From a virus: DNA of 18,814 bases. A model generated the notes under the pieces. That model ran no database searches. It had not been told where the DNA came from and saw only the letters and a list, made by a program, of their open reading frames with translations. How positions within the stretch are numbered: the stretch's first letter is position 1; each line of letters starts with the position of its first letter. Shown here piece by piece: positions 2,190 to 18,664 of this stretch. The position numbers and the translations under genes were made by a program. The stretch lies in the UHGV virus genome UHGV-2198042. The stretch is one strand, 5' to 3'.

Positions 2190-2851
2190 GCTCCAACATC
2201 GAACCCGCCGATGTATTCGTTATCCATATCAAACCCAAAGAATTTAGAGCCTTCTGACGGTGTTTCTACCGAAGGCGTTTCAACATCACCGGCCCATACG
2301 CCAGCTGATTTAACGGTGAGATAGCCCTGTTTGATAGCGGCGATCAGTTCGAGAGACACATCAGAAATATCAGTTTCAGGGAAAACCCAGACCGAAATCG
2401 TCATGTCCTGGTTGTCGACGATCTGCATCCTCAGGCCTGAGCCTGCGGTAGCAGCGTCAAGGATGGGAGGCAGAGAGTCGTTCCGACCGTCCCAGTTGTT
2501 GATAGCGATTTTCGCTTTCAGAATGATGCGGTACGTCTCATCGCTTAGCGTCGTATAGCCAGAATCAGGATCATATGGCCCTTGCCAGATGCCCTGGTCA
2601 TACCCAAGCCCGTCAGTGTCCAAGCTGAAATAAACTCCGCTAATTGGCTGGCTGACTATGCGACTGCGTCCGATCCACAGACCGAGGATGTCGAGCTGTA
2701 CACCGACAGCAGTATCGATATCGAAGGCTGTTATAAGCCCTGACATAGTGCTGGACACATCAATCAGCGGGCAGGTGCTCAGATCTATATGGTCAAAAAA
2801 GAGTGGCTTGGTAGCGTGGTAGTTAGTGATCAGTTCGGTGTATTTGCTCAT
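2171..2851 (-). CDS. baseplate protein (P2 gpI / Mu gp48-like)
   Basis: 226 aa ORF between the baseplate J-like gene and the tail fibre gene, with overlapping stop/start; assignment by synteny and size. Confidence 0.6.
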   Translation of the reverse strand: MSKYTELITNYHATKPLFFDHIDLSTCPLIDVSSTMSGLITAFDIDTAVGVQLDILGLWIGRSRIVSQPISGVYFSLDTDGLGYDQGIWQGPYDPDSGYTTLSDETYRIILKAKIAINNWDGRNDSLPPILDAATAGSGLRMQIVDNQDMTISVWVFPETDISDVSLELIAAIKQGYLTVKSAGVWAGDVETPSVETPSEGSKFFGFDMDNEYIGGFDVGAWGTIL

Positions 2852-4047
2852 GAGGTCACCGTGATACTGATATTCGCGGTGCTACAGGACGCTGAAGCAT
2901 CATAGGCAATATCAATGTTTGATGCCGATACGCTGCCAGACGACTTACCGATCAGCAGGTCGGTAATATCGTAATAGCGGGCATTCCCGCCGCTCACAAC
3001 GCCGAGGTTTGCCGGGGAATAAATACGGCTCAGCAGAACGTCGTCGCCAATTGTTAGGCCATTTATATAATCGGCAACAGCCTGTTTAATCTGCTCGCCG
3101 ATTTGAGAGGTATAGCCGGTAAAAACTTTCAGGGTAATGGCTACGAAAATTGGCACATCGGTAGAGCGCGAAAAACTGATGACGTGAGGATTACCATAAG
3201 TATCCGGCACTGTGACAGAAGTTTTACCGTAAGTTGCGGTTCCCTGCCCTTTATTCCCCCTGATGGTCTGGGCTATCTCGGTAACATCCCCTCCATCGAC
3301 GATGGCGGAAATAGAGTGTGGCGGCAGCCCGTTGCTGTCGGTTGCCCCAGTATCGTTCTTATATAGTTTGTGACGTGTCACGCCAGCAACATTAGCGATA
3401 GCACCGTCGACACCTTCAAACGGTGTGATCGATGGTAGCGCGACGCTTTGCCCCTGCCGAATGCGCAGCTCTGCGTCGGTTTCGGCTGGTGAACCGACAG
3501 TAGCCGCAACTGGATTGGTTACCGACACCCAACCTCGGGTCGGGGTGTTGATAGTGGTAATAGTCCCGGCCAGCGCCGCAACCGAACCGCTATTCGCACA
3601 TGTGGCCGTCACCAGCACAGTACCATCAACGCCGATCGCTACACTTGCGGGAAAATTCCAGATAATGCCGTTTTTATCCCGTGCGGAGCCATTCGTGATA
3701 GTCGTGCCTGCCGTACCGGTTAACAGAAGGTCAGCAGTAGAGTTTGTCGCTACTTTTCGCGTGATCCCGTTAATTTTCACATTGCTGCTAAGCGCTGCGG
3801 CCTGCGCTGTCGTCGGTGAAAAAGAGTTGTAGATCCCGATAGCGGTGTTGTTAGCGTCATGCACGGCAAGAGCCACCAGCGCGACCATCTGCCCGTCTTT
3901 GCTGTCTGGTTCGAGGTAGGCATCACTACCGTAAATCTGCCTGAAATAGCTGGTCAGTGTATCTAGGATTGTCTGGTAATCAGGCGCACTAATCCCCTGG
4001 GCGGTTACCGTTGCCGATAGCCCCAGCGTGTCGAGGTTCAAAGCCAT
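2848..4047 (-). CDS. baseplate J-like protein (P2 gpJ / Mu gp47-like)
   Basis: 399 aa; size, composition and synteny (after the gp25/W-like gene, before the gpI-like gene) fit baseplate J-family wedge proteins. Confidence 0.7.
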   Translation of the reverse strand: MALNLDTLGLSATVTAQGISAPDYQTILDTLTSYFRQIYGSDAYLEPDSKDGQMVALVALAVHDANNTAIGIYNSFSPTTAQAAALSSNVKINGITRKVATNSTADLLLTGTAGTTITNGSARDKNGIIWNFPASVAIGVDGTVLVTATCANSGSVAALAGTITTINTPTRGWVSVTNPVAATVGSPAETDAELRIRQGQSVALPSITPFEGVDGAIANVAGVTRHKLYKNDTGATDSNGLPPHSISAIVDGGDVTEIAQTIRGNKGQGTATYGKTSVTVPDTYGNPHVISFSRSTDVPIFVAITLKVFTGYTSQIGEQIKQAVADYINGLTIGDDVLLSRIYSPANLGVVSGGNARYYDITDLLIGKSSGSVSASNIDIAYDASASCSTANISITVTS

Positions 4048-4401
4048 TTATGCCTCGCTTGTTACAGTCGTCTGGCCGTAGATTGTGTCAATGGAGGAAG
4101 TGAAGGTGACGCGACGGCTGGTGCCGTCATAATTGGTATCGAAGGAAAGAATCGACAGAACGCCCGGTGTATCCTGTATGCGTTCGCGTATAGCCAGGAT
4201 GTAGACATCTGATCGCTGCTTCCCAAGCACTGACTGAACATACGGCGTGCCTTCCGTCAGATCGAGAAACCACTGACCGCGCCACAGCTCGAAACGGGTT
4301 TTTACGGCCTGGGCGACACATTCCGGACTGTCGATAAGGAAAGTATCGTCACCCTGGCCGAAAGTGTAATCGCCTTCAGTATCTTCGCGACGGTATCGCA
4401 T
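4048..4401 (-). CDS. small baseplate protein (gpW/gp25 or Mu gp46-like)
   Basis: 117 aa ORF tightly coupled between the spike and J-like genes. Confidence 0.5.
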   Translation of the reverse strand: MRYRREDTEGDYTFGQGDDTFLIDSPECVAQAVKTRFELWRGQWFLDLTEGTPYVQSVLGKQRSDVYILAIRERIQDTPGVLSILSFDTNYDGTSRRVTFTSSIDTIYGQTTVTSEA

Positions 4402-5141
4402 TATTGCGGCCCTCCGGTAGTTCCCCCGCCAGTCTGTACTCCGCCATGTTTATGCGTGGCGACACTGATACCAGAAGCTGTTACGTCATTCGTTACCGTC
4501 ACCGGCCCAAGCATCGTCGCAGTACCGCCGCTTTCGCCCATTCCCTGAGACAAGTTGCCATTAATCGTTACGTTGCCGTTCAGCGTGATAGTCGGGGATG
4601 TGATTGTCGTTCCACCTTCAGCCGTAGCTGTAAGCTGGCCCGGTGTTTTAATGGTGATGTTATGTCCTGCGGCGACTTCTACAAACGCCGCACCATCATC
4701 GGTTCGCAGCTGCGCGGCGCTGGTACTGATACCGCTGATTTTCCGTGCTTGCGACTGTGGGCCAACGATGGCGAACGCATCAGATAAGTCATGCTGGCGC
4801 GGGTCGACGGTCTCCTGCACGCCGCCGCTCTGCCACCAGAAATCGATGCAACGGTCGGCAAAGAGCAGCAGGCACTCGTCGCCTTCTTTAACCGGAAAAG
4901 TCAGCGTACAACCGCCGCCACGCGGGAAGATAACCGGCACATCCACCAGCGGTTTTAATTCGGTGGAGCCATCGCCAACGATACCGCGAAGCGCTACCTC
5001 TACCGTGCAGGTAACAGTGTCAGGATCGAACGACTGAATGATGCCGGGCATCGCTACGCGCATCTGGGTAGACACCGAATCGGCAATGGCCTGCGCGGTC
5101 TGCTGCTCACCGCCGATCTGTGATTGAGTTGGAATTGGCAT
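4401..5141 (-). CDS. baseplate spike/hub protein (P2 gpV / Mu gp45-like)
   Basis: 246 aa; N-terminal region ...PLVDVPVIFPRGGGCTLTFPVKEGDECLLLF resembles the gpV OB-fold; Gly/Thr-rich C-terminus; G-rich RBS before the ATG. Confidence 0.7.
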   Translation of the reverse strand: MPIPTQSQIGGEQQTAQAIADSVSTQMRVAMPGIIQSFDPDTVTCTVEVALRGIVGDGSTELKPLVDVPVIFPRGGGCTLTFPVKEGDECLLLFADRCIDFWWQSGGVQETVDPRQHDLSDAFAIVGPQSQARKISGISTSAAQLRTDDGAAFVEVAAGHNITIKTPGQLTATAEGGTTITSPTITLNGNVTINGNLSQGMGESGGTATMLGPVTVTNDVTASGISVATHKHGGVQTGGGTTGGPQ

Positions 5142-5152
5142 AAAACCCCCAT

Positions 5153-5180
5153 AAAAAAACCAGCCGAAGCTGGTTTGGTA
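5153..5180 (-). terminator. intrinsic terminator-like hairpin (minus strand) upstream of spike gene
   Basis: Minus strand reads aaaccagc-TTCG-gctggttt followed by ttttat; 8-bp perfect stem with a UUCG tetraloop and a U-run. Confidence 0.45.
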
Positions 5181-5242
5181 TCAATTATCTCTTAGTAACT
5201 AAGCTACATCAGTGTGAAGTAAGGCTTTTCCGCTGCAATGGC

Positions 5243-5259
5243 ACACATTCACAATGTGT
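5243..5259. promoter_or_regulatory. 7-bp inverted repeat (acacatt-cac-aatgtgt), operator-like
   Basis: Perfect palindrome in the intergenic region about 105 bp upstream of the + strand small ORF; -35-like hexamers (ttgcaa, ttgaaa) nearby. Confidence 0.25.
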
Positions 5260-5363
5260 ATTAGGATATGTTTGCAACAAGTAAGCATTGAAAATCAATT
5301 TCAGCCATGAAGCCGCCATAGAGTGGACCTGCACCATCGCATTATTGACTACAGGAGTAACAA

Positions 5364-5654
5364 ATGGGATTTAGATTTCGTAAAAGAATCCGGATTGCGC
5401 CCGGACTCGCGATCAACATTAGTAAAAGCGGAGTAAGCACTTCAATTGGTGGTAAAGGTTCCACCATTAACATCGGGAAAAAAGGCGTAAAGATGACAAA
5501 TGGCCTTCCCGGCACGGGGCTGTCGCATACCACTAACCTTTACTCTCCCGGGAAATCGACAGAAAAAAAACAACTTACTCATAAGCAAAAAATAATTAGA
5601 AACATCCTGTTCGTAATTATTGTGTTTATTATAATTAAAGCTCAATATTTTTGA
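5364..5654 (+). CDS. DUF4236-like small protein with C-terminal transmembrane helix
   Basis: 96 aa; N-terminus MGFRFRKRIRIAPGLAINISKSGVSTSIGGKG... resembles DUF4236 proteins from memory; C-terminal ILFVIIVFIII hydrophobic stretch; RBS aggagt 6 nt before ATG; antisense to all neighbouring genes. Confidence 0.55.
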   Translation: MGFRFRKRIRIAPGLAINISKSGVSTSIGGKGSTINIGKKGVKMTNGLPGTGLSHTTNLYSPGKSTEKKQLTHKQKIIRNILFVIIVFIIIKAQYF

Positions 5655-5658
5655 CGCA

Positions 5659-5690
5659 TGCCCGCCTATCTGGCGGGCTATTTTACTTTT
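5659..5690 (+). terminator. intrinsic terminator of the small + strand ORF
   Basis: gcccgcc-tatct-ggcgggc 7-bp GC stem followed by tattttactttt, starting 5 nt after the ORF stop; overlaps the stop codon of the convergent 296-aa gene. Confidence 0.55.
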
Positions 5691-6568
5691 CGGCAGTCGT
5701 ATGTTGCATACTGGCGCGGCGCGTCTATGCTGGCCTGCAACCACTGTGCGTTGAGAATAGCTTTTCCGTTGCGCTTGATGTACTCAAGCCCAACCCAGCG
5801 GCCGGGTTGATTAGTGGCAGCCATCCACTCCATCTTGATGTTATCCGGTTCCCCTTTGGTGCTACCACCAGAGCCGATTGGGCTAATTTTTTGCGTCTCT
5901 GGTTTTGCGCCATTAATTCTGGCCCAACCATCAGCAGAAGACAGATCAATCGTATAAGGACCACAGACTGTTTTGTAATTCACGCCAAGCTTTTCGTTAC
6001 TGTGAACATTACTACTTTTCTCGTAATCAGCCTTGGCTACGTCGTTCATTTTTTGATAGATGGCAGGTTGCTTCAGCGATAACTCATTTAGCTGTTTTAC
6101 AAAATTTTCTCGTGAAACCTCTGCAAGCCCCATGGGTTTTCTATCAATGATATAATCATCATAAATCTTTAATACAACAGCCGAAGAAGAAAGTTTCTTA
6201 GCTAAATCATTTACAAAATTGAGATAATTTAGCTGAGAATTATCTCTTACATCGATAGCCCTAACTCCACCTGTGCCGTACTCATGATATGCAGCATAAA
6301 AAGCTGGTATATTCTCCGGCTTTTTATTGATTGCCTTAATCAACCCGTCAGGACCACAGATCTCGCCACTCCAGTCAATTAGTGACTTCCCTTTAGATTT
6401 CCATGTCTGACAATCATCTGTCGATAAAATTACTATCGGCTGCCATCCTGGACGTCTTTTGTACTCAGCGTTCTGCGCGGAATTAAAGCCTGCACTCGCG
6501 CCCCCGGATAAGAGCAACCCGGAAAGAAAAAGTGCGCTATATCGAATTCCGTTCTTATTTGTACCCAC
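5678..6568 (-). CDS. secreted/periplasmic protein of unknown function (signal peptide)
   Basis: 296 aa; GTG start 7 nt after an AGGAGG RBS and directly after the upstream gene stop; N-terminus MGTNKNGIRYSALFLSGLLLSGGASA/GF is signal-peptide-like; AT-rich relative to flanking tail genes; shares a 17-residue motif with the tape-measure protein. Confidence 0.65.
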   Translation of the reverse strand: MGTNKNGIRYSALFLSGLLLSGGASAGFNSAQNAEYKRRPGWQPIVILSTDDCQTWKSKGKSLIDWSGEICGPDGLIKAINKKPENIPAFYAAYHEYGTGGVRAIDVRDNSQLNYLNFVNDLAKKLSSSAVVLKIYDDYIIDRKPMGLAEVSRENFVKQLNELSLKQPAIYQKMNDVAKADYEKSSNVHSNEKLGVNYKTVCGPYTIDLSSADGWARINGAKPETQKISPIGSGGSTKGEPDNIKMEWMAATNQPGRWVGLEYIKRNGKAILNAQWLQASIDAPRQYATYDCRKVK

Positions 6569-7636
6569 TTAATTTCCTCCTGAGCGAGCTATAGTCGACT
6601 GGCTAATCAGGTCACGAGCCCCACGCGCAAAACACATCAAATCCATGTACCACGCCTGACCTCTGGTGTCACCAGTATAATCGATAGCTTTGACGATATA
6701 AACGCCATCTGTCGCAATGCTGGCAGCCTGTGACGTTGTGCCGGTCAGTACGCGGTTGCCGTTCTCTTCTGTTTCGGTGATGCGACCGGGCGACTGTGCT
6801 ATTTCGCTATTACCGAGCGCGGCGCGGTACACCGAAGCCTGATCGAGCTGGATAAGACCATTAATACGGATGTTTGGGTTTATCAGGCACCGCACGTTTA
6901 CTCCGCCGCCCATCGTTTGTTGCGGCATACCGATCAGGCCAGTATCGGCATTCAACACAATGGCTTCGTGAATATATTTATCCTCCGGCACCATCTGGAC
7001 CTGACCATCCACCAGCTGCCATGTCGCTTTGCACTGCGCAGCAATATTATCCATCACGTTACGGGTGGATGAATAAATCGCACGGCCACGAGGAAACACG
7101 GTATCAGGAAAGTCACCGGTAATGCCCTGCGTCACGCCGAACGCGTTGAAATCCTGCATAGTCGCCCGGTGCAGGTCCGCAACGGTATAACCAGCGGCAA
7201 GCGTGGTGATGGTAGTCGCGTAGAGGAACGCTTCGTGGTTACTGATGGCCTGAATCAGCACCCAGGAATCGGTGATGTTGTCCTTCCCGGTGACGGTGAA
7301 GCGAATATCACCGTCAAATATCAGGCCGTAGTTCTGACCGTTCACCTGCCCTACCTGGTCTGGTGAAATCTCCCGGGCGACACCAACCTGGCTCGCATCA
7401 ACATCCGGCGCAATACCGTCATACCCGGCAATGATGCGAATTTTTGCAAACTCCTGCCCCAGTATCTTGTTCGTGGTATCGGTCGAAAGGTTGTAAATTT
7501 TCACGTTCGCCACGCGTGGCCAGCGTGTGTCTGCCCACTCGATCTGGAACGTGACCTTAAAGTCAGACAGGGAAACGCCCTGCCCGTTCTGGTCCAACAG
7601 TTGCAGCTCAAAATGGCGCATCCAGTTAAGAGACAT
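6569..7636 (-). CDS. tail/baseplate protein (Mu gpP/gp44-like position)
   Basis: 355 aa ORF in the tail module between the tape-measure region and the spike; assignment by synteny only. Confidence 0.5.
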   Translation of the reverse strand: MSLNWMRHFELQLLDQNGQGVSLSDFKVTFQIEWADTRWPRVANVKIYNLSTDTTNKILGQEFAKIRIIAGYDGIAPDVDASQVGVAREISPDQVGQVNGQNYGLIFDGDIRFTVTGKDNITDSWVLIQAISNHEAFLYATTITTLAAGYTVADLHRATMQDFNAFGVTQGITGDFPDTVFPRGRAIYSSTRNVMDNIAAQCKATWQLVDGQVQMVPEDKYIHEAIVLNADTGLIGMPQQTMGGGVNVRCLINPNIRINGLIQLDQASVYRAALGNSEIAQSPGRITETEENGNRVLTGTTSQAASIATDGVYIVKAIDYTGDTRGQAWYMDLMCFARGARDLISQSTIARSGGN

Positions 7637-7945: not shown

Positions 7946-8548
7946 TCATCCCCCGAATGCTGATGTAACGCTTCCGCCCAGCTGGCTCAGCAAGGATTCG
8001 TTTGGCGGTGTAGTGGATTTCATCCCGGAATTCTGCACCGCCGATGTGCTGACGCCATCCTGCATATCTGATTTATCTGCAACGCTAACGCTCTGCGTCT
8101 GCGACATGATCACTTCACGCAGGGTAAGCGTGCAGTTCAGCACGTTCTCGCTGGTTTTATCCGTTGTCACCTCGATGGCTCGCACCAGCATATTGCTGTA
8201 AACCCGCTTTCCGGTCACTACATCGAACGGCACCCGAGAGGACTGGAGATCCAGTAGTTGCTGATAGGTCTCTTTCGGGCTAAGTCCGGCGCTGAGGCCG
8301 ATTGACGATGTATCAATGAAGTCCAGCAACGAACCGCCACCTGCGAAGCCGCATTCCATCGTGACTTCGCTGGGGCGCTTATACGCATGATCGGCGATGA
8401 AACCCGACGCGCTATTCGTTGTTGGCTTCTCCACCGGGTGCTCAGTAATTTCGAGCGCATCAGAATGCTTTTCGGAAACGACCACGCTGGGGATCAGCAG
8501 GCCAATTCGCCGGGATTGCTGGCGAAAAATCGCTGATAAAATATCCAT
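7946..8548 (-). CDS. tail protein of unknown function
   Basis: 200 aa ORF immediately downstream of the tape-measure gene; family not recognised. Confidence 0.45.
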   Translation of the reverse strand: MDILSAIFRQQSRRIGLLIPSVVVSEKHSDALEITEHPVEKPTTNSASGFIADHAYKRPSEVTMECGFAGGGSLLDFIDTSSIGLSAGLSPKETYQQLLDLQSSRVPFDVVTGKRVYSNMLVRAIEVTTDKTSENVLNCTLTLREVIMSQTQSVSVADKSDMQDGVSTSAVQNSGMKSTTPPNESLLSQLGGSVTSAFGG

Positions 8549-10185
8549 TATCTCGGTCCTGCGGGGAGTTGCTGGGTTAACTGTGAATTCACGCCCTTTT
8601 GACGGTCAACAGTCAAACGGGCAGCCTCGCGCGGATCGGAAACGCCGTGGATGTTAATGTTCGTTTCCTGCTGAATCACCGGGGCGCTGGTGGGCATATT
8701 GCTCATCACTTTCGGAATGTAGTTGCGCGTTTCCTGCGGCATTAGCCCCATTCCATAACGCTTAACATTCCCGATCCCCCAGTTATATGATGCCAGTGCT
8801 TTGCTAAGGTCTCCGCCGTTCTGCCGCAACAGCTGGCTGAGGTACTTAGCGGCTGCCTGAGCTGACTTTTCCGGGTCGAATACATCATTCCCACGCAGGC
8901 CCATGTCGCGCGCCGTGCCATCCATAAACTGAAACAGTCCTTTCGCGCCTGCGCCGGATATGGCGAACTGGTTACCACCCGACTCGGTGATCGCCACGCT
9001 TTTCAACAGGCCAGCTGGCAGCTGATAAAGCGACTCCAGTTTATTGAACATTGGCCCCATCCAGTCGAGCAATACCTTGCCCTGGGCCGTCGCCTGAGGT
9101 CGCTTAACCGACTGCGCTCGCTGCTCCGGCTCCAGTCCCATCTCCTGAATTTTTCGCTGGATTTGCTCATCAGTGAAAAAGTCTTTGCCGGGATTTTCCT
9201 TTCTCAGCGCCTCATATGCCTGCTGCCTTTCAGGTACGATATTGCTGCCTATACCGCCAATCGACGCCATTTCTTCACTGGTGGTCGGCGTATTGTTGGC
9301 AGGAATGAACATAAGCAACCATGGATTCTTGATTGCCAGCTGTGCGATCCCCTGCGCCAGCTTACCCAGCCCACCAATAGAGCCGCCAATTGCCTTACCA
9401 AGCCCCATAAATCCGGCGACAAGTCGCCCGATGCCAGTGAGCATGGAGACCAGCTTCGCACCAGCCAGAAAGCCAAACAGGATGGTGAGCGTATTTTTCC
9501 AGCCGCCGAGGTTGTCCTTGAGCTCCAGAAACTTATCGCGCAGCCACTTGAACACCTTCTTTGCCTGCTCAATTTCTGGCTGCCATTTGGACCAGTCAAT
9601 CAGGCTTTTACCGCCCTCTTTCCACGTCTGGTAATCGTCGTACAGCAATCCGATCGCCAGAATCAGTGTGGTGATAATTCCAATCGGGGATTTCAGGAAC
9701 GCAGAATTAAGCAGACGCCATGCGACCAGTAGAGCACCGAATATTTTCAGCAGATTTTTACTGCCATCGTCAAGACGCTTCCACCAGTCGATGACAGAGC
9801 CAGCGCCCTGTATCAGCCGCCACGCCATTCTCGTGAATGCGTTCGCAAGCCAGATCACGCCTTTAATAACTCTGGTCAGCGTCTCTTCAATCTTCGGGAA
9901 ATTGTCGAGGATGCGCCGCCGCAGGCTGTCCAGCGAACCAGCCAGGCCACCAGCGAGGTTTGAGCCGATCTTGTCCCGCATGATGCCGAACAGCGACGTA
10001 AGCCCGCGCATGGACGTCATGAATTTGTTGGACTGAACAGCCGCTTTATCAGCGTTGAACCCTGTCTTTTGCAGCATCGACTGGTAATCGGCGGTAAAGC
10101 CATTCATGCCGCGCCGCATCGCCATCAGCGTGTTTTCATCGATGCCAAGCATCTGCGCGTATTGTTTCGCGCGGTAATACGGCAT
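8548..10185 (-). CDS. tail tape-measure-like protein with C-terminal lytic transglycosylase (SLT) domain
   Basis: 545 aa; several Gly/Ala-rich hydrophobic segments; C-terminal ESGGNQFAISGAGAKGLFQFMDGTA...ASYNWG resembles SLT-family transglycosylase motifs; position before the baseplate genes. Confidence 0.65.
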   Translation of the reverse strand: MPYYRAKQYAQMLGIDENTLMAMRRGMNGFTADYQSMLQKTGFNADKAAVQSNKFMTSMRGLTSLFGIMRDKIGSNLAGGLAGSLDSLRRRILDNFPKIEETLTRVIKGVIWLANAFTRMAWRLIQGAGSVIDWWKRLDDGSKNLLKIFGALLVAWRLLNSAFLKSPIGIITTLILAIGLLYDDYQTWKEGGKSLIDWSKWQPEIEQAKKVFKWLRDKFLELKDNLGGWKNTLTILFGFLAGAKLVSMLTGIGRLVAGFMGLGKAIGGSIGGLGKLAQGIAQLAIKNPWLLMFIPANNTPTTSEEMASIGGIGSNIVPERQQAYEALRKENPGKDFFTDEQIQRKIQEMGLEPEQRAQSVKRPQATAQGKVLLDWMGPMFNKLESLYQLPAGLLKSVAITESGGNQFAISGAGAKGLFQFMDGTARDMGLRGNDVFDPEKSAQAAAKYLSQLLRQNGGDLSKALASYNWGIGNVKRYGMGLMPQETRNYIPKVMSNMPTSAPVIQQETNINIHGVSDPREAARLTVDRQKGVNSQLTQQLPAGPR

Positions 10186-10291
10186 GTTGTTGAGCTTTTG
10201 CCCAACCCGCCCTGATAGCTGCCTGTGTGGCGTTTAAATCTTTCAGGTACTCACGGGCAAACAGCTCTTGTTTGTCGGTGAGCTTTGCCAT
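10136..10291 (-). pseudogene. terminase small subunit N-terminal stub
   Basis: 51-codon frame MAKLTDKQELFAREYLKDLNATQAAIRAGW... matches the conserved terS N-terminal HTH motif, then loses similarity and stops; overlaps the tape-measure start in another frame; GGAG RBS upstream. Confidence 0.5.
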
Positions 10292-12064: not shown

Positions 12065-12510
12065 GACAGGAACAGAGCTCGCTCTGCCTTGCGGCGATTC
12101 GTGAGCCCCGGCATCACCTTTCCGCCTGATTTATTCCAGCGCAGAAATTCATCTGCCGCGCCTTTTATATCGCCAGCATTCAGCTTTTTCAGCAGTGTAG
12201 ATGTGGAAAGAGCACGCGACCCAACGTTGTAAGCGAACGACACCAGTGCGTCGAACTGGCCTTGTGTCAGCTTCACCCTGACAACTTTCAGCACGTCATT
12301 CTCATAACCAACAAGCCCTGTTTTCAGAAGCCTGTCAGCGGTTTGCTGGTCGATAGTCATACCGCGCTTTACTGGCTTTCCGTCAACCGGATGGGTCCAG
12401 CCATAGCCGATGGTCCACGGCGCATCTCCCGTTCCGGGGTCGGGGTAAGCAGTCAGCCGACAACCTTCAAATTTTTTTATCAGAGCAATTCCGTCAGGAC
12501 TGGTTTGCAT
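12061..12510 (-). CDS. R: endolysin, T4/P22-type lysozyme (GH24)
   Basis: From internal Met [16 protein letters not shown]... about 149 aa; ...[14 protein letters not shown]...[11 protein letters not shown] matches the P22 gp19-type lysozyme from memory; the ORF-track N-terminal extension overlaps the holin gene. Confidence 0.85.
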
Positions 12511-12817
12511 CGTCAACTCCCGCCTTTTTTGCTGCAAGTTTTTTAATAAGATTGCCGATCGAATCGGTGCCGATGTATCCAATAAAGACGCTGGCTATGT
12601 AGGCGAGGTTGCTGCTCAGGCCGATAAAGTCCAGAAGGTCACGAACGAACCAGGCAATCATCGCGCACATCAGCGCATCAATTAGCGTTTTTGTTACCGC
12701 GCCGCCGTTATAGCGACCACGCAGATACGCCATGATAAAAGCCAGCATTGCACCAATACCCTGCTCCTTGGCGGCAAGTAGCGCAGCGATGAAATCTTGT
12801 TTGTATGGCATTTTCAT
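12494..12817 (-). CDS. S: class I holin, lambda S-like (dual-start MKM)
   Basis: [39 protein letters not shown]... is near-identical in pattern to lambda S; GGAGG RBS; the ORF-track upstream start (12826) is probably not used. Confidence 0.85.
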
Positions 12818-13025
12818 AGGCCTCACCTCCGATTTTCCGGATGGTGCTGTGTGTGTGTTTGAAAAGGGTCAGGCTTCACGGGCTGGATTTATCAACAAAG
12901 CACGTAGCGGATGATTCCCGTGAGCCTGAAATTGATGAATATGTCTGAAATAACTAGACCATTAGTAAAACAACTCGATAAATGTGGTTAAATGAGACTA
13001 CGTTCTCACAACTTAATTAGTACCA

Positions 13026-13196: not shown

Positions 13197-13633
13197 GTTG
13201 CCAGTTTTCAATGAAGATAATGCGGGCAAAAAAAGCCTGCTCGGACGAACAGGCATGAAAAATAACAATACCGTCAAGGAGGTGGCGCCGGGTGCCTCCC
13301 GGTGGAACAGCCCCAGCCGACTAGTTCCGCGCAAACAAACCTGGACAAAAAAGTTTGACTGGACGCCCCGCCGCATAGGGGGATTCACCACGAACCAAAA
13401 GATAAAATCATCCGGTGACCGGGGCAATATCTAACCGGAACTTTTCAGAATCACTTATTGTTTCCTGGAGAGTACATGAGCGTTGGTGAATTCACGTGAT
13501 GCTTTTGGATGAGCGCTGAACCCAAAGGTCAGTATTTTCACACAGCAATTTTGCAAAAAGCAGCGCCCATTCAAAACCAGGTCGCTTTCCAGTCACTCCG
13601 GGGAACCCATCATCGCAGACTGGAAAGCTTTTA

Positions 13634-14133: not shown

Positions 14134-14208
14134 TGGCGGGATAGCGTGGACTCGAACCACGATAAGAAGGTTAACAGCCTTCCGTAATGACCTTTATACG
14201 ACTGACCC
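14134..14208 (-). tRNA. tRNA-like element, anticodon GUU (Asn-like), probably degenerate
   Basis: 75 nt on minus strand: acceptor gggtcag, D-arm with A14 and GG, anticodon stem gaagg/ccttc with loop cuGUUaa, T-arm cgtgg-TTCGAGT-ccacg, 3' ctatccc-g-CCA; acceptor stem has 2 central mismatches. Confidence 0.35.
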
Positions 14209-18217: not shown

Positions 18218-18664
18218 ACCGGGCAACGAGTCGGTGATTTATGCGAAATGAAGTGGTCTGATATCGTAGATGGATATCTTTATGTCGAGCAAAGCAAAAC
18301 GGGCGTAAAAATTGCCATCCCTACAACATTGCATGTTGATGCTCTCGGGATATCAATGAAGGAAACACTTGATAAATGCAAAGAGATTCTTGGCGGAGAA
18401 ACCATAATTGCATCTACTCGTCGAGAACCGCTTTCATCCGGCACAGTATCAAGGTATTTTATGCGCGCACGAAAAGCATCAGGTCTTTCCTTCGAAGGGG
18501 ATCCGCCTACCTTTCACGAGTTGCGCAGTTTGTCTGCAAGACTCTATGAGAAGCAGATAAGCGATAAGTTTGCTCAACATCTTCTCGGGCATAAGTCGGA
18601 CACCATGGCATCACAGTATCGTGATGACAGAGGCAGGGAGTGGGACAAAATTGAAATCAAATAA
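18218..18664 (+). pseudogene. int: integrase C-terminal fragment (lambda Int residues about 209-356)
   Basis: Translation ...TGQRVGDLCEMKWSDIVDGYLYVEQSKTGVKIAIPT...HELRSLSARLYEKQISDKFAQHLLGHKSDTMASQYRDDRGREWDKIEIK* is near-identical to the lambda Int C-terminus from memory; upstream of about 18218 the frame is unrelated and hits a stop at 18140-18142. Confidence 0.85.

Follow-up and report, generated by a model that had tools for sequence, protein, structure and literature searches.

The stretch analysed here, 18,814 nucleotides of the virus genome UHGV-2198042 (hereafter the window), carries at 5364-5654 on the plus strand an open reading frame (ORF) of 96 codons plus TGA whose product belongs to the DUF4236 family. 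The locus is an ordinary phage moron cassette, and its 96-amino-acid (aa) protein is already in RefSeq as 'DUF4236 domain-containing protein' (WP_000506880.1, identical in sequence). We have little doubt that the ORF is a real gene encoding a predicted membrane protein, and we hold with the same confidence that its cassette occupies a cargo hotspot within a SEN34-like tail module. As the best overall explanation we propose that the protein is an inner-membrane moron product expressed from the prophage, which would act in superinfection exclusion; we give this reading a probability of about 0.35.

The DUF4236 gene and its cassette

The original prediction had described the anatomy of this gene correctly. 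The ORF lies opposite to all flanking genes, as every Pfam-supported gene between 697 and 17559 is on the minus strand, and its ribosome-binding site is good, with the Shine-Dalgarno motif AGGAG (5353-5357, plus strand) followed by the ATG 6 nt further on. At this site ACTACAGGAG is common to the window and the Klebsiella phage copy, and the motif is partly kept (CTACAGGAG, AGGAG, AGGA) in one Escherichia coli upstream variant and two other lineages. The N-terminus, first described as DUF4236-like, is in fact a full-length match to Pfam PF14020 (residues 3-55, at 5370-5528 on the plus strand, against profile positions 1-54/55; E=1.8e-20; 73.6 bits, above the gathering cut-off of 27), and it is also matched by nine PHROG families of unknown function. 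AlphaFold2 models the domain as a six-strand beta meander at moderate confidence, and a charge count gives 10 lysines or arginines (K/R) and zero aspartates or glutamates (D/E) within the first 58 residues. The end coordinate originally given, 5690, comprises the ORF plus its terminator.

The proposed C-terminal transmembrane helix is likewise supported. The C-terminus IIRNILFVIIVFIIIKAQYF (residues 77-96; 5592-5651, plus strand) is the most hydrophobic segment of the protein, with a mean Kyte-Doolittle hydropathy of 3.05 over residues 77-91, and AlphaFold2 predicts a helix at residues 73-95 with a predicted local distance difference test (pLDDT) above 90. As the hydrophobic core lies near the C-terminus, with only about 5 residues beyond it, the 96-aa protein appears to be tail-anchored; a signal peptide or lipobox is absent. 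NCBIfam contained no match to the ORF, a search of solved structures by sequence with a 78-member profile gave no match below E=0.25, and the AlphaFold2 model had no informative structural neighbour.

Comparison of the window with diverged E. coli copies reveals 18.5-22.5 synonymous and 3.5-4.5 non-synonymous differences (pN/pS, the non-synonymous to synonymous ratio, ~0.06). All replacements fall outside the hydrophobic anchor and three of the four lie within the polar linker. We interpret this strong purifying selection as evidence that the ORF is real, and the alternative of a spurious ORF is ruled out by it.

The cassette is placed between two backbone regions of a contractile-tail operon, with the baseplate hub gene and the STY1065-like gene that follows it on one side and the gene for the central spike, V, on the other. 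In blastn comparisons with close E. coli prophages that carry other cargo, backbone homology stops at 5164-5174 and restarts at 5680-5693, and therefore the whole cassette, consisting of a non-coding leader, the ORF and a terminator, extends over approximately 505 bp (~5175-5679, plus strand). The guanine-plus-cytosine (GC) profile agrees with these limits, with 0.41-0.45 across 5100-5700 compared to 0.52-0.60 in V and hub; the GC dip as a whole (0.35-0.47) spans 5100-6500, with 0.52-0.60 on either side.

Part of the stretch from hub to V is matched in at least 53 complete E. coli genomes, 19 of which have the DUF4236 gene. Approximately 20 genomes possess the same hub and V genes at ~94-97% identity with other cargo between them. 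This slot holds a Phd/Doc toxin-antitoxin pair in the relative L023, a 53-aa ORF together with an unannotated opposite-strand 116-aa membrane ORF in L024 and L025, a 371-aa protein in L026, and 185-aa and 70-aa proteins in L027. In SEN34 it is occupied by an N-terminally anchored 138-aa protein, in vB_EcoM-683R1 by a 170-aa protein, and in ST340-VIM1phi10.1 by a 61-aa opposite-strand ORF and a protein with an HExxH motif. The phage can dispense with the DUF4236 cassette, because prophages with the same hub and V genes lack DUF4236 and carry unrelated cargo instead. The cassette shares with morons in the sense of Juhala and Hendrix, as summarised in PMC3594210, its absence from close relatives at the same position, a deviating base composition and an own terminator.

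The 116-aa ORF (L024 1257-1607, plus strand, and the same place in L025) has a central hydrophobic segment and is unannotated in RefSeq. It scores exactly at the Pfam cut-off for EACC1 (23.6 bits) and is followed by its own plus-strand terminator, GCGCCGG-TCAAC-CCGGCGC-TTTTT.

Within E. coli the DUF4236 cassette is found in 19 of 5,426 complete genomes, which derive from gut and environmental strains of many hosts, and the identical 96-aa protein is present in several E. coli genomes, including apparently complete prophages. Conservation of the ORF in related elements, the lack of which would have counted against the original prediction, extends further. Both slot and opposite orientation recur in the Klebsiella phage RCIP0034 and its relatives (62% aa identity) and in Hafnia prophages (58% aa identity), and two metagenomic relatives also keep both the position between hub and spike and the orientation. 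In one relative (L119), a gene for a 137-aa exported protein (2550-2963, plus strand) lies ahead of the DUF4236 gene on the same strand in the slot between hub and spike, so that the arrangement there is a two-gene opposite-strand unit.

The cassette ends in an intrinsic terminator (5660-5691, plus strand), composed of a 7-bp stem entirely of GC pairs (5660-5678) and a U-tract (5679-5691). The hairpin, GCCCGCC-TATCT-GGCGGGC and then TATTTTACTTTT, begins six bases past the DUF4236 stop codon and has a folding energy of -16.7 kcal/mol (z=-4.3 versus shuffles). It had been described as a strong terminator whose stem touches the stop codon of the convergent gene, which is accurate to the extent of exactly one base (5678), common to the stem and the TAG (5678-5680) that ends the 296-aa gene. 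On the minus strand, AUGCGUCAAAAA comes after the hairpin and a U-tract is lacking; the terminator should therefore act on plus-strand transcripts only. The U-tract overlaps the stop and the last four codons (RKVK*) of the convergent gene, CGA AAA GTA AAA TAG, whereas relatives without the cassette encode KVK* as AAG GTG AAA TGA or AAG GTG AAG TAG. At 5679-5691 of the window it is thus A-rich synonymous codons that supply the U-tract, in place of the AAG GTG AAA/AAG of cassette-free relatives. An equivalent terminator is present in the Klebsiella and Hafnia copies of the cassette. Terminators directly 3' of DUF4236 genes were found at 11 of 30 loci, while the 393 remaining ORFs there have one in 70 cases; such terminators are enriched yet not universal, and we therefore regard them as a trait of some lineages and not of the DUF4236 family.

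The non-coding region upstream of the gene (5177-5363, plus strand) is the presumed location of its promoter. The best candidate of a position weight matrix (PWM) scan is a -10 element TAGGAT at 5262-5267 with a poor -35. It ranks at the 99.94th percentile of window positions, approximately the chance yield of a 200-nt region, and TAGGAT is retained in both E. coli upstream variants. The -35-like hexamers pointed out earlier in this region are not conserved and no better than chance. The 7-bp palindrome proposed alongside them does exist (ACACATT-CAC-AATGTGT, 5240-5256), but it is no better than chance and perfect only in the window, and its conservation fails in the five E. coli copies compared, which read ...CAAGGTGT. 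A second palindrome, CTTAGT-A-ACTAAG (~5189-5201), is half-deleted in L033, the sole copy inspected; nine E. coli matches align over 548 and not 559 bases, which fits an 11-nt deletion as in L033. Operator function of the upstream palindromes was accordingly rejected, one being perfect only in the window and the other half-deleted in L033. Just the surroundings of the ribosome-binding site and a minus-strand hairpin beside V align across lineages, and Rfam gave no match between 5100 and 5700.

The DUF4236 family and its genomic settings

A first search recovered 192 homologues, and a profile search extended these to 12,921 clusters at 50% identity. Among the 150 best of the 12,921 representatives the DUF4236 match almost always starts at residue 1. 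The commonest make-up, common across Proteobacteria, is a protein of ~90-110 aa with DUF4236, a polar linker and a C-terminal hydrophobic helix, in which the conserved part is the soluble basic domain rather than the helix. In 78 homologues the first 58 residues contain on average 9.8 K/R versus 0.4 D/E, and the hydrophobic helix is followed by a median of 2 and a maximum of 8 residues. The C-terminal parts vary, comprising a transmembrane helix, a TM2 domain (Pasteurella phage), an SH3_3 domain (Vibrio) or a helical soluble domain (Clostridioides difficile phages). SH3_3 domains are usually extracytoplasmic. The basic N-terminal domain, the short C-terminal tail and the position of the Vibrio SH3_3 after the helix together lead us to predict that the protein is tail-anchored with its basic DUF4236 domain in the cytoplasm.

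The Vibrio diabolicus protein (L031 6001-6504; 167 aa, DUF4236-helix-SH3_3) is encoded among small co-oriented cassette-like genes. Its neighbours include SnoaL, an acetyltransferase, DUF4238, an ankyrin protein and a restriction-like nuclease, and the region reads as a chromosomal integron array. In C. difficile phage phiCD146 the DUF4236 protein (L116 4001-4642) has 213 aa and no membrane helix, and the tail chaperone there is of the Gp15 family; phiCD111, CDSH1 and slur17 have a DUF4236 match at a similar genome position (~10 kb).

DUF4236 genes recur in the vicinity of tail genes. In lambda-like prophages of Leclercia the gene lies between the tape measure and gpM on the opposite strand; in Pantoea it lies, again on the opposite strand, between tail chaperone and tape measure. 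At one prophage end it stands beside a probable tape measure (a 1,241-aa ORF after the tail chaperone, with no Pfam match). A 5-kb prophage remnant of Salmonella that includes three tail proteins likewise contains DUF4236 (PMC8049487). In a sample of 80 IMG/VR loci, which form 23 clusters at 75% identity, a spike, hub, Baseplate_J, tape-measure or tail-lysozyme gene is at most three genes away in 12 of 23 clusters (66 of 80 loci), and the sample includes a second lineage with the gene between hub and spike, in which the DUF4236 protein has 167-177 aa. Exceptions to the tail-gene setting are the Vibrio array, a site flanked by insertion sequences (IS), a locus with a terminase neighbour and the blocks of small genes in virulent Klebsiella phages. 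The recurrence of DUF4236 genes beside tape-measure, hub or spike genes of unrelated phages, often on the opposite strand, is suggestive, and we do not press it further because the sample is biased to close relatives and its clusters are not independent.

The tail operon and the prophage around the slot

The flanks of the slot are a simple contractile-tail module of the SEN34 (Brunovirus) / E217 type, encoded on the minus strand. Its genes comprise a tape measure with an SLT domain (8548-10185), a Dit-like protein (7946-8548), the baseplate hub (6569-7636; E217 gp41-like, phrog_196), which is the upstream flank, and the central spike or baseplate assembly protein V (4401-5141; PF18352 and Apex), which is the downstream flank. 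These are followed by an ORF at the sheath-initiator position, placed there by synteny and without a Pfam match (4048-4401), and by baseplate J, named so in relatives (2848-4047); genes for wedge, collar and tail-fibre assembly are present in the flanking tail region as well. Q and the genes for holin, lysozyme and Rz lie upstream on the same strand, so that the late operon runs from right to left throughout the region. Since V and the later genes are reached on the minus strand only past the cassette, late transcripts have to traverse it antisense, just as the original prediction had stated. Between Q and the lysis genes there are an Rfam match to the small RNA (sRNA) STnc100 (13224-13416, minus strand) and a tRNA gene (14137-14208, minus strand).

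The convergent gene (5678-6568, minus strand) encodes an exported protein of 296 aa with a signal peptide, a novel N-terminal domain and a C-terminal STY1065/phrog_3443 domain. Its GTG start abuts the hub TAA (TAAGTG, with no shared base) and GGAGGA stands ahead of it, which assigns the gene to the late operon. The C-terminal 100 residues match phrog_3443, the N-terminal domain is without family, and the C-terminus is 64% identical to a 111-aa exported protein at the same position in relatives, one of which is labelled 'STY1065/STY2022 family phage-derived protein' by NCBI. A literature search on STY1065/STY2022 returned nothing relevant. This STY1065-like gene is a backbone gene outside the cassette. 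The original prediction had paired it with the DUF4236 gene, a pairing which proves incidental, as the STY1065-like gene is fixed whatever the cargo; the two as a functional pair were rejected on the grounds that it is present with any cargo and that DUF4236 occurs elsewhere without it. The exported protein after the hub measures 111-118 aa in most relatives and 296 aa in the window. Its extra N-terminal domain has a distant likeness (23% identity) to part of the 371-aa protein of L026 (1106-2221). The L002 counterpart (6330-7210) starts with a lipoprotein-type signal (LVTGC); only its last 123 codons are annotated, and it may be disrupted.

On the other side of the cassette, just upstream of the spike start (5141), there is a minus-strand terminator (5150-5176) with a hairpin at 5176-5157 and a T-run. 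A GC-rich hairpin with a T-run stands beside V in every relative aligned, with any cargo (L001, L002, L023-L027, L017, L118, L119). The stems differ (CCAGC/GCTGG, CCCGC/GCGGG, CCCACC/GGTGGG), and the Klebsiella phage version is weak, with no clear T-run. This terminator may belong to the backbone and shield V and the genes after it from transcription that starts in the cargo slot; by analogy with lambdoid biology, Q-modified late transcription would be expected to pass it. A sigma-70-like site on the minus strand (TTGAGC-18-AATAAT, 9/12 matches) lies at 5645 to 5616, inside the AT-rich end of the ORF that codes for the helix. Together with the terminator at 5176-5157 it could delimit an antisense RNA, with one such site found against 2.0 expected.

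The cassette resides in a lambdoid prophage of E. coli type, whose copy in the window is defective. Of the small terminase there remains a 51-aa ORF (10139-10291, minus strand), which matches no more than profile positions 1-31 and continues directly into the tape-measure gene. The tape-measure product has 755 aa in relatives, and in the window it begins at residue 149 of that protein. As the terminase remnant is joined to the tape measure, the genes for head, sheath, tube and chaperone are missing. At the right end, an integrase ORF (18248-18664, plus strand) covers only positions 44-168 of the catalytic-domain profile and is therefore a C-terminal fragment. The DUF4236 gene is intact although the prophage can no longer build virions.

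Proposed role, rival explanations and known systems

In the mechanism that we propose, the 96-aa product would be an inner-membrane protein whose basic beta-rich domain lies in the cytoplasm; a short polar linker would lead from there to the C-terminal helix, with about 5 residues left outside. The gene opposes the late operon and has its own terminator, so that it should depend on a promoter of its own and be transcribed apart from the late genes; judged by orientation and terminator, such independent expression is probable. The likeliest setting would be the lysogen, in which the terminator would end the DUF4236 transcript before it could continue antisense through the hub genes. Once the prophage is induced, late transcription antiterminated by Q would cross the gene antisense and so silence it. 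The protein would act at the cytoplasmic membrane and shield the lysogen from incoming phages at the step of genome entry, like HK97 gp15, and its placement beside tail-tip and tape-measure genes would keep the specificity of exclusion linked to the tail module. We put an anti-phage role in general slightly below even odds, and by analogy exclusion specifically at DNA entry appears possible but rather doubtful. It is equally speculative that the DUF4236 family forms an unrecognised phage-borne class of exclusion or defence proteins in slots beside tape-measure, hub and spike genes. Such a class could span siphovirus and myovirus tails and both Gram-negative and Gram-positive hosts, and its specificity would travel with the tail module recognised or protected against.

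Several observations weigh against superinfection exclusion. A DUF4236 domain predicted to be cytoplasmic has no obvious meeting place with an incoming tail. Some DUF4236 genes are co-oriented with the tail genes around them, namely the one of Pseudomonas syringae B728a, which lies between gpK and gpI/J, and those of another siphovirus and of phiCD146, which are flanked by tail chaperone and tape measure. The DUF4236 proteins of C. difficile siphophages are devoid of a membrane anchor, and virulent Klebsiella phages carry the domain in blocks of small, early-looking genes. The role of the family hence need not be lysogen-specific or membrane-bound. Upstream of the gene in the window, a consensus scan gave no plus-strand sigma-70-like site at 9/12 matches or better, and cross-lineage alignment of the upstream region yielded no conserved promoter footprint. 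The ORF has no match among the defence-protein models of PADLOC-DB v2 at E up to 1, the literature on DUF4236/PF14020 reports no function and consists of incidental mention, and the sampling bias behind the tail-gene association counts here as well.

The same co-oriented genes, embedded in the tail operons of several phages, lend some weight to an alternative in which the protein serves the phage during the lytic cycle, expressed early or late, as a membrane-anchored helper, guard or timing factor tied to tail tip or tape measure. Presence of the domain in virulent phages and an association with tape-measure, hub and spike genes that spans phages of Gram-negative and Gram-positive hosts point in the same direction. 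We nevertheless consider a lytic role unlikely, since the gene is dispensable, with unrelated cargo between hub and V genes of ~94-97% nucleotide identity, since in this lineage it points away from the late promoter, with terminators on either side, and since it stays intact in a prophage unable to build virions. The conflict-type cargo of the hotspot (Phd/Doc, the EACC1-like ORF and the HExxH protein), together with the location of the Vibrio version in an integron-like array of small cassette-like genes, would suit an abortive-infection effector, that is, a tail-anchored protein that oligomerises upon sensing infection and damages or depolarises the inner membrane, so that the cell dies. Small membrane proteins are common defence effectors, which likewise speaks for this possibility. 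It is nonetheless improbable for a single gene that has no partner sensor and no PADLOC match, whose conservation resides in the soluble basic domain rather than in the helix, and which gives no sign of toxicity.

Lysogenic conversion unrelated to phages, in which the protein would affect envelope physiology, stress tolerance or colonisation as do lambda bor and lom, seems to us about as improbable as abortive infection. The moron architecture and low GC content are compatible with it, as are carriers that are gut and environmental E. coli from many hosts, and in lambda, too, bor is a prophage-expressed gene on the strand opposite to that of the late genes. It is countered by the predicted topology, in which the domain is cytoplasmic and the external tail of ~5 residues leaves no surface exposure, and by the recurrence of the family specifically beside tail-tip genes, also in virulent phages. 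The original prediction had placed most weight on transcriptional interference, and in its strongest form this would make the locus a regulatory device, in which convergent or antisense transcription throttles the late tail genes, or the reverse, with the peptide being secondary. Late transcripts to V do have to cross the gene antisense, terminators on both strands flank the cassette, and the minus-strand promoter-like site lies within the ORF; yet that site is within chance expectation, relatives lack the cassette, the upstream DNA is not conserved, and purifying selection acts strongly at the amino-acid level in a large protein family. A regulatory device is therefore very improbable. Interference as the main point found no support either; selection on the protein, a family of ~12,900 clusters and homologues that are co-oriented elsewhere speak against it. 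A holin function was also discarded, as a separate lysis cassette (holin PF05106 at 12494-12826, lysozyme, Rz) is located at least ~6 kb away and the DUF4236 gene lies among baseplate genes.

The original prediction was sound in anatomy and is only partly supported in its interpretation; the cassette and its hotspot, the recurrence beside tail-tip genes and the defective prophage had been overlooked. Nothing already known is overturned by the locus and its annotated gene. DUF4236 is a very large family with essentially no literature, for which this locus provides a topology and a genomic habit, that of a dispensable cassette which occupies hotspots next to genes for tail tip or tape measure, in many cases antisense to them and with its own terminator. 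If superinfection exclusion is the true function, the family would be a widespread second example beside HK97 gp15, the sole well-studied case from a tail operon, and the slot between hub and spike of SEN34-like prophages would be a place to seek further defence cargo.

Compared to known systems, the 96-aa protein is a plain member of PF14020 with the domain at its N-terminus, and it does not differ from that family. With type I toxins it shares small size, a hydrophobic helix and overlap by antisense transcription, but it is larger (96 aa), has a conserved soluble domain and is accompanied by no discrete antisense sRNA unit that we could find. On its size, its conserved domain and the lack of an Rfam match or sRNA unit, a type I toxin was rejected. 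The DUF4236 gene resembles lambda bor and lom in being embedded in the late region. With bor, which the prophage expresses, it also shares its orientation against the late genes. The two lambda products, a lipoprotein (Bor) and a beta-barrel (Lom) of the outer membrane, are related to the surface, whereas the DUF4236 protein is predicted to face the cytoplasm.

P22 SieA and T4 Imm are described, in passages of PMC3594210 and PMC10883804, as phage proteins of the inner membrane which stop the genome from entering and leave the receptor untouched. Their sequences are unrelated to DUF4236, and the function established for them is only proposed for the latter. Both are encoded outside tail operons. 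HK97 gp15 is a moron of the tail operon that has a promoter and a terminator to itself and is flanked by the genes for chaperone and tape measure; its product enters the inner membrane and prevents the injection of genomes in a manner that depends on the tail (PMC3594210). Exclusion is established for gp15 and proposed for the DUF4236 protein. A Pfam scan of the ORF at E up to 0.1 gave DUF4236 only and no YebO/gp15 homology, with no direct pairwise comparison to gp15 made. The DUF4236 protein differs from gp15 in its predicted tail anchor and large basic cytoplasmic domain, and its gene differs in lying between hub and spike of a contractile tail, antisense to the operon. Both are small membrane proteins encoded by dispensable add-on cassettes of the tail operon, beside tail-tip or tape-measure genes and with their own terminators, and other DUF4236 genes occupy the exact slot of gp15 between tail chaperone and tape measure.

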